Notes under the pieces: model-generated
Seen by the model: only the letters and a program-made list of their open reading frames with translations
Told to the model about the DNA's origin: nothing
The model's database searches: none
Shown: positions 6,799-26,093 of the stretch, piece after piece
Numbering within the stretch: the first letter of the stretch is position 1
Layout: each line of letters opens with the position of its first letter
NCBI GenBank assembly: GCA_965217895.1
Contig: CBDCJV010000002.1
Span: 4,608,001 to 4,672,000 of the forward strand
Direction: 5' to 3'
Origin: Waterburya sp.
GTDB taxonomy: Bacteria; Cyanobacteriota; Cyanobacteriia; Cyanobacteriales; Xenococcaceae
Length of the DNA stretch: 64,000 nt
Made by a program: the position numbers and the translations under genes

Positions 6799-8193
6799 AT
6801 GCCTAAAGGCGAAATTATTGGATTAGGAAGATCGGGAATTGCTGCTGCAAGATTACTAAATAAAGACGGTTGGCAAGTCACTCTAGTAGATTCGGCAACA
6901 GAAGAACAGATCGCTTCTAGATCTAACGCGCTTCAACTACAAGCAGCACAACAAAAGTTGATCGCCGAAGGAGTTAGAGTTCAGCTAAATAGCAGTCTGA
7001 CTCTAGAATCTTCAGATGCAGCAGATCTAATCGTCGTTAGCCCTGGTGTCCCCTGGGATACCTCCAGCTTAGCCAAAGCCAGAAAACAGGGTATCGAAAC
7101 TATTGGCGAAATTGAATTGGCTTGGCGTTATTTAAATAAGATTCCTTGGGTTGGTATTACGGGAACTAACGGCAAAACTACAACTACAGCTTTGATTGCA
7201 GCAATATTTCAGGCTGCGGGTTTCAATGCCCCTGCCTGTGGCAACATTGGCAATGCTGCTTGTGAATTAGCAATTCAAAACTTTGATGCTGCTAACTCCA
7301 AAGCTTTTGATTGGATTATTGCTGAATTAAGCAGTTATCAAATTGAATCCACTGTGGAATTAACACCGCAAATCGCTGTTTTTACTACCTTCACTGCCGA
7401 TCATCTCGATCGCCATAAAACTTTAGAGAATTATTATCAAATCAAAGCTTCTCTACTTCGTCGCTGTAAGCAAAAAATTATCAATGGAGACGATCGCTTT
7501 TTAGAACAGGCAGGATTAGAATTGGGTAAAGATGTTATCTGGACAAGTGTTAAAGGCAAAGATACTTTCCGAGATCATCGCCGTTTAGAAGTCTATCTTG
7601 AAGATGGTTGGATTGTAGCCTTTGGCGAACTTATTGCCCCTGTATCCCTGTTTAAAATGCCAGGGAAGCATAATCTACAAAATCTCTTGGTAGCTGTAGC
7701 AGCAGCAAAATTGGCGGGAATTGAAAAAAAGGCGATTGCTCAGGCTATAACTTCTTTTCCTGGAGTGGAACATCGCCTCGAATATATTTGCACCCATCAA
7801 GGAATTAAATTTATCAACGACAGCAAAGCCACAAACTACGATGCAGCAGAGGTAGGTTTAAACTCTCTTAATGCACCTGTAATTTTGATTGCAGGTGGGC
7901 AAGCCAAAACAGGAGATGATACAGCTTGGATTGATATCATTAAAGCTAAGGCTGCTACAGTAATGCTTATTGGCGAAGCAGCACCAGCTTTCGCCAAAAG
8001 ATTGAGAGATCGCAATTATCATAATTATCAAATCGTCGAAACTATGGAAAATGCGGTAAATCAAAGTATTACCCTAGCTCAAAAGCAACAGGCAAAGGTT
8101 GTTTTACTTTCTCCCGCCTGCGCTAGCTTCGATCAATATCTTAGCTTTGAGGCAAGAGGGGATCATTTTCGGCAATTGTGTTTAGCATTATAA
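6799..8193 (+). CDS. murD: UDP-N-acetylmuramoyl-L-alanine--D-glutamate ligase
   Basis: GLGRSG, VSPGVP, GITGTNGKTTT, NDSKATN, LLSPACASFDQY; ATG at 6799 preferred over TTG at 6739. Confidence 0.95.
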   Translation: MPKGEIIGLGRSGIAAARLLNKDGWQVTLVDSATEEQIASRSNALQLQAAQQKLIAEGVRVQLNSSLTLESSDAADLIVVSPGVPWDTSSLAKARKQGIETIGEIELAWRYLNKIPWVGITGTNGKTTTTALIAAIFQAAGFNAPACGNIGNAACELAIQNFDAANSKAFDWIIAELSSYQIESTVELTPQIAVFTTFTADHLDRHKTLENYYQIKASLLRRCKQKIINGDDRFLEQAGLELGKDVIWTSVKGKDTFRDHRRLEVYLEDGWIVAFGELIAPVSLFKMPGKHNLQNLLVAVAAAKLAGIEKKAIAQAITSFPGVEHRLEYICTHQGIKFINDSKATNYDAAEVGLNSLNAPVILIAGGQAKTGDDTAWIDIIKAKAATVMLIGEAAPAFAKRLRDRNYHNYQIVETMENAVNQSITLAQKQQAKVVLLSPACASFDQYLSFEARGDHFRQLCLAL

Positions 8194-8365
8194 AAAGTAA
8201 AGAAATAAACCCTTGCTAATTACCAAAAGCGTACTGTTAATTAAAGATTCATCAACAAACGCGGAATGGTTTTGATCGTTGATAATTCCTAGTTTCTTAA
8301 AAGTTACTAATTGCTACAAACTAATAAATTCGAGCAAAGCTAATTTATATCAAGCGTAATTAATT

Positions 8366-22048: not shown

Positions 22049-22669
22049 TTAACCAGCGTAACCCTTATCGATCGCTAAATTACGCCCATGTGCTGCTGCA
22101 ACAGCTAGGCGATCGCACCTTTCGTTTTCGCTTATGCCTGAATGAGCTTTTACCCAGACAAATTGAACATCATGTATTTTGCAAAGATCGAGTAATTCCT
22201 GCCACAGATCGGGATTTTTAGCCATTTCCTTGGCATTTCTGCGCCAGCCGTTAGCCTGCCATTTTTTTGCCCAGCCTTTGACTACGGCATCAACAATATA
22301 TTTGGAGTCACTATGCAGCTTGACTTTAGAATTAGACTTGAGAGATTCTAAAGCGGCGATCGCACCCATCATTTCCATACGGTTGTTGGTAGTAAGCTTG
22401 TAGCCTCCAGAAATTTCTTCGCGGCGATCGCCATCTATAATTACCGCGCCATATCCCCCTGCTCCAGGATTACCAGTACAAGCACCATCGGTGTAGATTA
22501 TGATGGTTTCTTGGGAAGTAGATCTAGATGATTTTGGTTTGAGATTTATAGTCAGCTTAGAAGATTTTGCAGTTTGGGGTTGAAGAGATTTGATATAGTC
22601 TAAAACATCAGGTAACAAGGATTCAGGAAGAGATTCAATTTCTGTCGTAATTTTGTGCTTATAATCCAT
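22049..22669 (-). CDS. rnhA: Ribonuclease HI with N-terminal extension
   Basis: IYTDGACTGNPGAGG, TTNNRME, DSKY, NPDLW, WVKAHSG..ENERCD. Confidence 0.93.
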   Translation of the reverse strand: MDYKHKITTEIESLPESLLPDVLDYIKSLQPQTAKSSKLTINLKPKSSRSTSQETIIIYTDGACTGNPGAGGYGAVIIDGDRREEISGGYKLTTNNRMEMMGAIAALESLKSNSKVKLHSDSKYIVDAVVKGWAKKWQANGWRRNAKEMAKNPDLWQELLDLCKIHDVQFVWVKAHSGISENERCDRLAVAAAHGRNLAIDKGYAG

Positions 22670-22764
22670 TGCTAACAAGCGTAATTTTACGCCTTACATG
22701 ATAGTTTATTTGCAGAGTTTTCGGTCTTGTGGATACTTGCTGTTGATTCATTACTCATAAATTT

Positions 22765-23424
22765 ATGTCAGTTAACAAAGTATTTTTATTTGTACCGAAC
22801 ATTATTGGCTATAGCAGATTTATCTTTTATTCAATTAGCTTTATTTGTCATACACTCGACAACTGGCAACTTTGTATTAGCTTTTATGCGATCGCCTTTA
22901 TTTTAGATGAATTTGATGGTCGTGCTGCCAGAGCCTATAATCAAAGCAGTAACTTTGGTGCAGCCCTTGATATGGTTGCGGATCGCACGGCTACGGCGGG
23001 TTTGTGTTTAATTTTGGCGCAATTATATCCTAATTATTTATTAGCCTTTATTGGTGCAATCGCTCTTGACGTTAGTAGCCACTATTATTTAATCTACGCT
23101 ACGGGGATGCTAGGTAAAACCAGCCATAAAGATTCGACTGAGTGGGCAACTAATGGACTAATGAAGCTTTATTATGGCAACAAGCCTTTTATGGATGTGT
23201 CGATCTTAGGAAATGAATTATTTTATATTTTGCTTTATCTCAATTTTTATCTTATTGGTGGTCATTTGACAATCAATGATTGGAATTTTACTGGAGTCCA
23301 AATAGCTCTAATAATTTGTATCCCAATTTATTTGCTCAAACAAGCTACTAATGTTTTACAGTTGCAGAGTGCAGCACAAGAAATTGCTAAATTAGATTTA
23401 ATCAGCCAAGAAGAAAATAATTAA
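22765..23424 (+). CDS. CDP-alcohol phosphatidyltransferase resembling eukaryotic phosphatidylinositol synthase
   Basis: DxxDGxxARx8GxxxDxxxD intact, plus FLFVPNIIGY.R, LDVSSH, SHK, LYY, GNELFYILLYL. Confidence 0.88.
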   Translation: MSVNKVFLFVPNIIGYSRFIFYSISFICHTLDNWQLCISFYAIAFILDEFDGRAARAYNQSSNFGAALDMVADRTATAGLCLILAQLYPNYLLAFIGAIALDVSSHYYLIYATGMLGKTSHKDSTEWATNGLMKLYYGNKPFMDVSILGNELFYILLYLNFYLIGGHLTINDWNFTGVQIALIICIPIYLLKQATNVLQLQSAAQEIAKLDLISQEENN

Positions 23425-23630: not shown

Positions 23631-26093
23631 ATGGCGAAAATTCTCAACCGACAACAAGCATTTGGCGCACCAGGTATCGAACCCCGCTGGACTCACTCTA
23701 ATAAAGATGGAGTAGGTACGGCATATTCAACTTCTAGTAAAGTTTGGTTTACCCTTTGGAAAGGAATTTTAACCGAGGTTTATTTCCCCTTTATCGATCA
23801 GCCTCAAGTTAGAGACTTACAGTATTTAATTACTGACGGACAAAGCTTCTTTCATGAAGAAAAGCGCGATTTAAAATCACAAACCGAACTACTTTGGAAT
23901 TGGGGTTTGGGTTATCGCCTTACTAACACCGCACCCGATGAAAGTTACAGCATAGTTAAACAAGTAATTAGCGATCCTCATTCTGATTGCATACTGCAAC
24001 ACACTAAGCTTACAGGTGACTCTTCTGTCCTCGATCGCCTTAAACTATATGCTCTTTGTGCGCCTCATTTGAACATTAGTGGCTGGGGTAATAATGGCTA
24101 TGTAATTGAAGTAGGCGATCGCAAGTTCCTAGTAGCCAACAAGGGCGATAAATGGCTAGTTGTTGGTGCTACCGTCCCTTTTAAAAAGCTTTCTTGTGGT
24201 TATGTCGGCAACAGCGATGGCTGGCAGGATTTAGCCGATAACTATCAGATGGATTGGGAATTCGATCGCGCCGAAAACGGTAATATAGGTTTGACGGGAG
24301 AACTAGATTTAACCAAAACTAAAGAATTTACTTTAGGATTAGCCTTTGGCTTCAGTTTAGAAAATGCCCTGGCTAATTTATTACAATCTTTAAATACTTC
24401 TTTCGAGCAACAACAGCAAACTTTTAAACAGCAGTGGTTACGAACCTGTGATAAGCGTTTACCTTTAGAAAGTCAATCGAGTGACAATGGTAATTTATAT
24501 CATACTAGCGTTAGTTTATTACTAGCTCACGAAGATAAAACCTATAGTGGTGCAACGATCGCGGCGATGAGTTTTCCTTGGGGAGAAAAAAAGGGAGATG
24601 GCGATCGCGGTGGCTATCATTTAGTCTGGACAAGGGATATGGTCAACAGCGTTACTGGACTGATGGCAGCAGGTCATACTGATACAGCAGTAAGAGCGTT
24701 AACCTATTTAGTAACTTGTCAGCACGAAGACGGCAGCTTTGCTCAAAACTTCTGGTTGAATGGTGAGCCTTATTGGCAAGGAATGCAGCTAGATGAAGTA
24801 GCTTTTCCGCTCTTACTAGCCGACGCGCTAGAACGAGTCGATGCCCTGCCAGTTTTTGATGTCTATCCCATGATTATTCGAGCAGCGGGATATCTAATTC
24901 GCCAAGGGCCCGCGACTCAGCAAGAACGTTGGGAAGAAGACGGGGGCTATTCTCCCTCTACCCTAGCTTGTAATATTGCAGCCCTAATTTGTGCAGCGAG
25001 GTTTGCCCGTCAACGAGGAGATGAAGTCACTGCTCAGTATATTGAAGAGTATGCCGACTTTTTAAAAGACCACACCGAAGCTTGGACGGTAACGACACAA
25101 GGAACGCTCCTACCAGAAATTAAGCGACATTTTGTCAGAATTACCCCAGCTAAAGTAGATGTTCCCCATCCCAATGAAGACCCGAACAACAGTACCATAA
25201 TTCTTTCGGCTCGTCCTCCTGGAACTGAATCAGAATTCTCAGAAAACAAATCGGCAGAATTTCCGACTAAAGAGGTAGTAGATGCAGGATTTTTATTATT
25301 TGTCCGCTATGGCATCATCGCTGCTGACGACCCCTTAATTATTGATTCTCTTAAAGTTATCGATGCAGTTCTTAAGGTCGATACTCCTTATGGTTCAGTT
25401 TGGCGAAGATTTAATCACGACTGGTACGGACAGAAAGAAGATGGTAGTGCCTATCAAGGCGTGGGTGTGGGACGCGCCTGGCCCCTGTTAGCTGGTGAAC
25501 GCGCTCACTACGAACTAGCTGCGGGAAATGATGTCACCCCGTTTATTAAAGCAATAGAAGGTTTTGCTTCCGATACTGGTCTGTTGACCGAACAAGTTTG
25601 GGACAGCGATGATATACCCGACGCACATATGTACTTGGGCAGACCCACAGGTGCAGCAATGCCCTTAATGTGGGCGCACGCGGAATATACCAAGCTCTTA
25701 CGTTCTTGTAAAGATAAACGAGTTTTTGACTATATTCCCGAAGTGGGCGATCGCTATCTTAATGCGCGTTCCCTTGCGCCTGACGGCGACGCGGGGTCGC
25801 ATCGCTACTTAAACAACTATAAATCCCAAGCTTTAGAAGTCTGGAAGTTTCACCGCCAGGTAACAACTGTTGCTCAAGGCAATACGCTCAGGATACAGAC
25901 CGAGAAAGCGTTTAAACTACGCTGGACACAAGACGAATGGCAGACCCAGCAAGATCTTGAATCAACCGCGATCGCACCTTTAAATCTTAATTATGCCGAT
26001 CTCAAATGTGAGCGATTGCGGATCGAGTTTACCTTCTTTTGGACTGATAGCAGCAATTGGTCTGAGTGTAATTATACCGTTGAAGTTATCTAG
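23631..26093 (+). CDS. Glucoamylase / glucodextranase, GH15
   Basis: AFGAPGIEPRW, GGYHLVWTRD, QERWEE, GRAWPLLAGER, PLMWAHAEY. Confidence 0.92.
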   Translation: MAKILNRQQAFGAPGIEPRWTHSNKDGVGTAYSTSSKVWFTLWKGILTEVYFPFIDQPQVRDLQYLITDGQSFFHEEKRDLKSQTELLWNWGLGYRLTNTAPDESYSIVKQVISDPHSDCILQHTKLTGDSSVLDRLKLYALCAPHLNISGWGNNGYVIEVGDRKFLVANKGDKWLVVGATVPFKKLSCGYVGNSDGWQDLADNYQMDWEFDRAENGNIGLTGELDLTKTKEFTLGLAFGFSLENALANLLQSLNTSFEQQQQTFKQQWLRTCDKRLPLESQSSDNGNLYHTSVSLLLAHEDKTYSGATIAAMSFPWGEKKGDGDRGGYHLVWTRDMVNSVTGLMAAGHTDTAVRALTYLVTCQHEDGSFAQNFWLNGEPYWQGMQLDEVAFPLLLADALERVDALPVFDVYPMIIRAAGYLIRQGPATQQERWEEDGGYSPSTLACNIAALICAARFARQRGDEVTAQYIEEYADFLKDHTEAWTVTTQGTLLPEIKRHFVRITPAKVDVPHPNEDPNNSTIILSARPPGTESEFSENKSAEFPTKEVVDAGFLLFVRYGIIAADDPLIIDSLKVIDAVLKVDTPYGSVWRRFNHDWYGQKEDGSAYQGVGVGRAWPLLAGERAHYELAAGNDVTPFIKAIEGFASDTGLLTEQVWDSDDIPDAHMYLGRPTGAAMPLMWAHAEYTKLLRSCKDKRVFDYIPEVGDRYLNARSLAPDGDAGSHRYLNNYKSQALEVWKFHRQVTTVAQGNTLRIQTEKAFKLRWTQDEWQTQQDLESTAIAPLNLNYADLKCERLRIEFTFFWTDSSNWSECNYTVEVI

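Follow-up and report, generated by a model that had tools for sequence, protein, structure and literature searches.

A gene for a phosphatidylinositol synthase (PIS) of the eukaryotic type in a cyanobacterial chromosome raises the question of which lipid the encoded enzyme might produce and where the gene came from. To our knowledge, phosphatidylglycerol is taken as the sole phospholipid of cyanobacterial membranes. The gene is located in the window analysed here, a stretch of 64,000 nt from Waterburya sp. (GCA_965217895.1; host genome G000), on a contig of 5.2 Mb (C2) in a genome with an estimated completeness of 99.9% and 0.7% contamination. Coordinates refer to the window unless a contig or locus is named; G and L numbers denote genomes and related loci that were compared. 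The gene and its diagnostic parts are as follows:

22765..23424, + strand: eukaryote-type PIS-family gene, ATG start, 219 aa, uninterrupted open reading frame
22906..22983, + strand: catalytic CDP-alcohol phosphotransferase motif, D48 to D73
23068..23361, + strand: C-terminal signature D102, S105, H106, H121, K122, Y136, E151, K192, Q199

All peptide blocks quoted in the initial annotation are present in the 219-aa translation, and the motif of the CDP-alcohol phosphotransferase superfamily, D-x2-D-G-x2-A-R ... G-x3-D-x3-D, is complete as had been described (D48, D51, G52, A55, R56, G65, D69, D73; PF01066, E 9e-16). A profile built from 31 proteins with eukaryote names or from eukaryote collections gave 222.7 bits for the Waterburya protein over positions 7-216 of 220, as compared to 248-290 bits for six held-out proteins, stemming from the same search that gave the profile members, and 25-52 bits for eight bacterial paralogues. 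In the alignment, 40 columns are shared by 80% or more of 67 eukaryote-labelled rows, many of these rows being labelled by assumption (9 of 16 representative rows checked carry a eukaryote name, the rest none); the Waterburya protein keeps 37 of these columns, the exceptions being S to A44, T to A72 and C to I147. Each residue of the C-terminal signature occurs in 64-67 of these 67 rows and in 0-1 of seven bacterial outgroup rows. Two residues within the motif, E49 and R53, are found in eight of nine rows of the cyanobacterial clade but in no more than 10% of the rows from eukaryotes. All of the nearest Atlas clusters among the rows listed are eukaryotic PIS, and identity to the nearer eukaryotic members is 36-43%. 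NCBIfam models for PgsA, PssA and ClsA gave 28-31 bits (cut-offs 107-304) and those for PIPS, AIPS and DIPPS 19-35 bits (cut-offs 170-580); a separate PgsA-type gene is present at C2:4950065-4950547.

Phylogenetic analysis likewise placed the protein with eukaryotic PIS, away from the PgsA, CLS and AIPS-type sequences. The profile test outweighs the tree for this grouping, because the separating branch has an SH-aLRT value of 87 and the outgroup branches are very long. The AlphaFold model is all-helical (mean pLDDT 82); a Foldseek search with it returned CDP-alcohol phosphotransferases in the top rows, none at E<=0.001, and a sequence search of the PDB yielded only weak matches to PgsA and IPCT-DIPPS. 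In a library of 50% clusters, three entries of the cyanobacterial clade, two of them assigned by the tree and one a 95-aa fragment, stand apart together with one duplicated protein, while the remainder start at 179 bits. Proteins of 406-422 aa were also noted (P0258, P0399-P0401), P0258 consisting of two tandem PIS domains. Judged by its sequence, the protein is thus assigned to the eukaryotic PIS family and not to PgsA, PIPS or AIPS, just as the initial annotation had it. This assignment already exists as automatic annotation, some family members being labelled CDP-diacylglycerol--inositol 3-phosphatidyltransferase by JGI.

It had been remarked that no inositol-phosphate synthase is encoded in the window, which is right, but a search of the genome revealed ino1 elsewhere, and further candidate partner genes were located:

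about C2:882,120-883,217: inositol-3-phosphate synthase (ino1), best structural match MIPS (6e-120)
C2:1,447,168-1,448,466: sphingosine-kinase-like (SphK) gene, best solved-structure match human SphK1 (1e-50)
about C2:2,869,470-2,870,271: ketosphinganine-reductase (KDSR)-like gene, best match TSC10 (4.5e-32; next match 4e-23)
C2:3,710,207-3,711,841: ACP-fused alpha-oxoamine synthase (ACP-AOS), best PDB matches serine palmitoyltransferases (SPT)

The Ino1 protein is of the short bacterial type, and its gene is divergent from one for a fatty-acyl-AMP ligase (FAAL), with genes for a GT4 glycosyltransferase, a CarS-like protein and a B12 radical SAM enzyme nearby. Further structure matches of the SphK-like protein are acylglycerol kinase (1e-22), its second relative, and DgkB (3e-11). 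By their best matches, the KDSR-like and SphK-like proteins are homologues of ketosphinganine reductase and of long-chain-base/ceramide kinase, respectively. Six SPT chains (4e-67 to 8e-65) precede KBL (2e-60) and BioF (5e-52) among the PDB matches of ACP-AOS, whereas in NCBIfam the BioF model (343 bits) outscores the SPT models (316, 294 and 238 bits), no cut-off being passed. The host has its own CdsA, its own PgsA and four genes of the inositol monophosphatase (IMPase) family. The genes for PIS, Ino1, the SphK-like and the CarS-like protein are distributed over three separate loci, and those for ACP-AOS and the KDSR-like reductase are unlinked to PIS.

Are these genes partners? PIS occurs in 37 of 61 genomes of the host family, i.e., in our host, in 34 of the 38 others of its genus and in two of 22 from other genera; ino1 occurs in 36, the SphK-like gene in 38 and the CarS-like gene in 36. 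Discordance with PIS is limited to one genome each for ino1 (G435) and the kinase (G430) and to three (G406, G414 and G430) for the CarS-like gene, such that PIS tracks ino1 as well as SphK in 60 of 61 genomes. No CarS-like gene turned up in two of the 37 PIS genomes, G406 (81% complete) and G414 (100% complete, 340 contigs), and all four genes are absent from G431 (99% complete), G433 (88%) and G445 (81%). The family genomes are kin and not independent, so that this profile reflects few events. ACP-AOS (57 of 61 genomes, at 69% identity or more) and the KDSR-like reductase (55 of 61) are family-wide, and the notion that they are restricted to PIS carriers was rejected.

Across the phylum, PIS was found in four of 401 sampled genomes, SphK in five (the four with PIS and G364), ino1 above cut-off in seven (the five with SphK as well as G336 and G344) and the KDSR-like gene in 21. 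CarS-like, KDSR-like and ACP-AOS proteins are absent from G336 and G344. All five SphK genomes fall within the 21 KDSR-like genomes, an overlap that amounts to two or three independent observations, because six candidates were scored per genome, a single genus supplies three of the five and the match between G298 and the query was at 100%. Most of the 21 genomes with the reductase lack PIS or the kinase, and together with ACP-AOS it is near-universal in the host family; a wider cyanobacterial sphingoid backbone carrying other head groups is possible. FAAL adjoins ino1 at 14 of 19 ino1 loci tested, the five misses being one locus at a contig end, three genomes without PIS of this type and the Symploca locus.

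Outside the genus, the genes are physically linked. In L050 and L075, genes for FAAL, Ino1, PIS, a radical SAM enzyme and the kinase are found together. The cluster in L143-L144 begins with FAAL, a polyketide synthase (PKS), ino1, a further FAAL, three desaturases, an acyl-CoA dehydrogenase, ACP and AOS and continues with an epimerase, a sulfotransferase, CarS-like, kinase, PIS and several glycosyltransferases, PIS being the direct neighbour of SphK in L144. L145 contains ino1, FAAL, a FAAL-ACP-AOS fusion, a KDSR-like short-chain reductase, LicD, Stealth, a GT4 enzyme with PimA as its best match (1.5e-42), CarS-like and, at the contig end, the kinase; the PIS of this genome runs off the end of another contig. 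G364, a genome without PIS of this type, has two FAALs, a hydroxylase, a dehydrogenase, ACP, AOS, a KDSR-like reductase and CarS-like in L183, while its SphK-like gene directly precedes an AIPS/PIPS-type transferase (L146:9055-11306) for which the archaetidylinositol-phosphate synthase model gives the highest score (122 bits, cut-off 180). This looks like one inositol transferase having been replaced by another in the same role. A different ino1 type resides beside a Gfo/Idh/MocA oxidoreductase in this genome (L184). No N-acyltransferase (ceramide synthase), no Aur1/PAP2-type gene and no phosphatase was seen in the annotated clusters.

Taken together, PIS appears as one part of a larger module with the SphK-like and CarS-like enzymes, being acquired and lost jointly with them and with ino1. 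Plain phosphatidylinositol (PI) would need only ino1 and PIS because the host has CdsA and four IMPase-family genes; the SphK-like kinase and the extra CDP transferase therefore suggest a dedicated acceptor lipid, which the linked backbone genes in turn indicate to be sphingoid. We consider an inositol-phospho-sphingolipid made via a CDP-sphingoid the likeliest product of PIS, with a probability slightly on the favourable side of even. The first step would be loading of ACP by FAAL and condensation of the acyl chain with serine by the SPT-like enzyme, yielding ketosphinganine, which the KDSR-like reductase would convert into a long-chain base. The SphK-like enzyme would then phosphorylate the long-chain base or its N-acyl form, and the CarS-like enzyme would turn the lipid phosphate into a CDP-lipid. 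Ino1 together with one of the host's IMPase-family enzymes would provide myo-inositol, with which the PIS-family enzyme would displace CMP from the CDP-sphingoid. Finally, linked glycosyltransferases, PimA-like in one cluster, may modify the head group. For N-acylation, either before or after the head-group steps, the second FAAL is a candidate. With regard to the earlier suggestion of an inositol-lipid pathway, the inositol supply is borne out by ino1; the suggestion was incomplete in that PIS belongs to the larger module and a sphingolipid is likelier than plain PI.

Several observations speak against a sphingolipid. CarS-like was missed in the two PIS genomes named above, the ACP-AOS and KDSR-like genes are neither tied to PIS in the family nor linked to it in the host, and the BioF model ranks before the SPT models for ACP-AOS. 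In addition, Nostoc punctiforme makes no unbranched sphingolipids according to PMC8895605, but it has only BioF-type AOS.

The main rival, which we judge unlikely though still deserving serious weight, is that the enzyme is a plain PI synthase that uses CDP-diacylglycerol (CDP-DAG) from the host CdsA and myo-inositol. The kinase and CarS-like protein would then make a separate lipid, or a later enzyme would move phosphoinositol from PI to ceramide. Such a function is consistent with the 37 retained eukaryote-conserved residues, the close tracking of ino1, the presence of CdsA and the two PIS genomes without CarS-like, and there is a precedent in Bacteroides, where PI-DAG is formed first and an Aur1-like enzyme yields PI-dihydroceramide (PMC9246714). 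On the other hand, it leaves unexplained why PIS tracks SphK equally closely and directly adjoins it in L144 and why an AIPS-type transferase takes the place of PIS in G364; moreover, the annotated clusters showed no Aur1/PAP2-type gene that could perform the later transfer.

A smaller chance, clearly in the improbable range, is left for another dedicated lipid as acceptor, e.g., an ether lipid, a monoacyl lipid or an amino alcohol derived from another amino acid or a polyketide chain, with kinase, CDP activation and inositol transfer unchanged. The substrate specificity of AOS cannot be read from NCBIfam scores, the host also has a PKS ending in ACP-AOS, acylglycerol kinase is the second structural relative of the SphK-like kinase, and the clusters hold desaturases, acyl-CoA dehydrogenase, fatty acid hydroxylase and a B12 radical SAM enzyme. 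Against this stand three independent best matches, SPT, TSC10 and SphK1, all of which indicate sphingoid chemistry. The PKS in question is a reducing enzyme of 2550 aa (C2, about 3885500-3893100; L095:9492-17141) that is present in many family members; in G424, a second KDSR-like gene and a sulfotransferase come after a PKS ending in ACP-AOS (L186).

Compatible with any acceptor, but again improbable and by our estimate marginally more so, is the use of inositol-1-phosphate, as in bacterial and archaeal PIP synthases, followed by a phosphatase. The short bacterial type of Ino1, the AIPS-type enzyme at the same position in G364 and the finding of no phosphatase in the annotated clusters may be seen in its favour. 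It is opposed by the scores of the Waterburya PIS on the PIPS and AIPS models (24 and 35 bits; cut-offs 170 and 180, respectively), by the four IMPase-family genes of the host and by the use of free inositol in the eukaryotic route (PMC9246714).

Concerning the residency of the gene in the chromosome, four further features of the window are relevant:

22888..22895, strand not specified: HIP1 octamer within the PIS open reading frame, at ordinary genome density
22742..22764, + strand: short 5' leader of the PIS gene, sole flanking DNA common to the four nearest orthologous loci
22049..22678, - strand: rnhA (RNase HI; PF00075), divergent neighbour, outside the module
23631..26093, + strand: GH15 glucan glucosidase-like gene, downstream neighbour, outside the module

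Both neighbours and the HIP1 octamer had been correctly located in the initial annotation and were used there as arguments against contamination. The octamer is compatible with the host but proves little, one in 660 bases being the expectation at a genome density of 1.1 per kb. The argument from rnhA and GH15 is weak because this context is private to our host among the genomes compared: rnhA was not seen beside PIS at any related locus compared, and DNA similarity to the four orthologues, at 91-92% nucleotide identity, is confined to about 22742-23424. A promoter scan gave no signal (three sites, 4.4 expected). As to the neighbours themselves, RNase HI is extended at its N terminus by a part whose DUF2281/VapB-like similarity is weak and below cut-off, and the GH15 gene has a paralogue of 63% identity at C2, about 4942000-4944200. 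Like PIS (window 22742-23424), the kinase locus (L106 vs. L099, L100 and L102) shares little beyond the gene's own length with near relatives; by contrast, similarity at the ACP-AOS and ino1 loci extends over most of the compared 3-4.6 kb.

What really speaks against contamination is the large number of orthologues. At least 120 proteins share 72-95% identity with PIS, the named relatives being Pleurocapsa, Waterburya and Xenococcaceae; cultured representatives include Waterburya agarophytonicola KI4 as well as Pleurocapsa sp. CCALA 161 and LEGE 10410. A two-motif scan of GTDB yielded 34 loci, 31 of them cyanobacterial (among these a Leptolyngbyaceae, an Oscillatoria and a distant copy with a frameshift in Symploca); the other three, at 31-32%, are one gammaproteobacterial locus and two labelled Verrucomicrobia. 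A single-protein query of viral contigs found no PIS relative. The dN/dS ratio is 0.07-0.15 in eight orthologue pairs, and codon use is host-like: among 3557 long open reading frames of the genome, PIS ranks at the 65th percentile for codon adaptation and the 36th for GC3, while its overall GC content of 35% is at the 8th percentile. That contamination or a chimeric assembly put a eukaryotic gene into this chromosome, for which one might cite flanks not common to near relatives, is therefore excluded for the gene itself by the orthologues in 36 other family genomes and in other families, the dN/dS values and the codon use, the relatives' flanks differing from one another as well, and we regard it as having a negligible chance of being true. 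Short second PIS fragments, one with an internal stop, were observed at G447:C1:5226012-5226275 and L018:520-648 and are probably decayed duplicates.

The initial annotation had further proposed an old transfer from a eukaryote to a cyanobacterium. The age of the gene's residence is borne out by the orthologues, codon use and dN/dS, while the direction of transfer is at most likely. The cyanobacterial clade is well supported (SH-aLRT 99 and 100), is marked by 15 residues of its own, among them E49 and R53, and was nested among eukaryotes in three of three free trees, on no starred branch; its neighbours varied between Discoba and oomycetes (one tree) and plants and stramenopiles (two trees). 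Eukaryote monophyly was not rejected by the AU test (p-AU 0.47, at a cost of 0.8 log-likelihood units; 75 rows, 49 of 120 proteins of the eukaryote set being retained after clustering), nor was a single clade of all bacterial rows (p-AU 0.16; LG+F+G4, 43 rows drawn from 81). As far as is known, PIS is general in eukaryotes. Because of this, its patchy occurrence in cyanobacteria and the presence of a second eukaryote-type enzyme alongside, transfer is the likelier reading, and the gene was likely acquired from a eukaryote long ago.

Additional bacterial PIS sequences were encountered. A second bacterial clade of the eukaryote type (L082:1921-2541; P0122-P0130) includes a gammaproteobacterial MAG of small genome size that lacks ino1. 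The eukaryote-type PIS of Symploca (34%; L083:5962-6635 and 7124-8311) is frameshifted, adjoins ino1 and is separate from the main cyanobacterial clade; a search of this genome found neither the kinase nor CarS-like nor the reductase. In two Verrucomicrobia-labelled MAGs (L084:5944-7839 and L085), divergent PIS-like genes with Met in place of the last motif Arg and without the signature His abut a sugar-porter transporter and gpsA, loci that possibly serve inositol uptake and lipid synthesis.

How does the module compare to known systems? The cyanobacterial PIS resembles the eukaryotic enzymes (CDIPT, Pis1) in full-length homology, catalytic motif and C-terminal signature, but differs in residing in a bacterial host, in forming its own clade and in the co-occurrence of SphK-like and CarS-like proteins. 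With actinobacterial PIPS, BT_1523 of Bacteroides and AIPS it shares fold, motif and a bacterial-type Ino1 partner, whereas its scores of 19-35 bits against cut-offs of 170-350 derive from its N-terminal half only, to which bacterial and archaeal models align, and structural identity is 12-15%; these enzymes use inositol phosphate and eukaryotes free inositol (PMC9246714). The proposed logic of synthetase-ACP-SPT, lipid kinase, nucleotide activation and head-group transfer parallels the ceramide-phosphoglycerate pathway of Caulobacter (AasR/AcpR/SPT, ceramide kinase CpgB, a CDP-DAG-synthase-like protein and a CDP-alcohol phosphotransferase). Precedents exist for the synthetase-ACP-SPT part, in Caulobacter (PMC9386255), and for a kinase followed by a proposed CDP-activation of ceramide-1-phosphate (PMC11324152). 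Unlike in Caulobacter, the cyanobacterial module has a predicted inositol head group, a CarS-like activator and a KDSR-like reductase, and its kinase is of the eukaryotic SphK type, CpgB representing a separate bacterial class (PMC10331486). CarS is a CTP transferase that prefers a non-phosphatidate lipid (PMC9385802).

The predicted product class is that of fungal and plant inositol phosphorylceramide and of the PI-dihydroceramide of Bacteroides. The plant compound is formed by Aur1-type transfer from PI. The products of Bacteroides and yeast also arise by Aur1-type transfer from PI and not via a CDP-sphingoid (PMC9246714). By 2022, according to PMC8895605, two ceramides were all that had been reported from cyanobacteria, and none of their sphingolipid enzymes had been characterised. 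Cyanobacterial enzymes homologous to human ceramide kinase receive a one-sentence mention in PMC10331486. The PIS family or module in cyanobacteria was not described in the papers found in a survey of mainly openly accessible articles.

For cultured cyanobacteria, the module provides candidate genes both for a sphingoid backbone and for an inositol lipid. Its complete form would be a mosaic route to inositol phosphosphingolipids, combining a eukaryotic PIS and a eukaryotic SphK with a CDP-lipid synthase of an archaeal family, a bacterial-type Ino1 and an ACP-fused SPT, in which inositol is placed directly onto a CDP-sphingoid without PI or an Aur1-type enzyme and subsequent glycosylation of the product yields a GIPC-like surface lipid; for this scheme as a whole we put the chances a little short of even. 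If true, a CDP-sphingoid route to lipids resembling inositol phosphorylceramide would be possible. We know of no earlier function for a bacterial CarS-like protein, and the one proposed here would, if the reading is correct, be the first. In addition, the cyanobacterial PIS, being small, intronless and bacterial, would be a practical stand-in for a family without a solved structure in the PDB and Foldseek searches. Even as a plain PI synthase, it would represent bacterial use of the eukaryotic free-inositol route.
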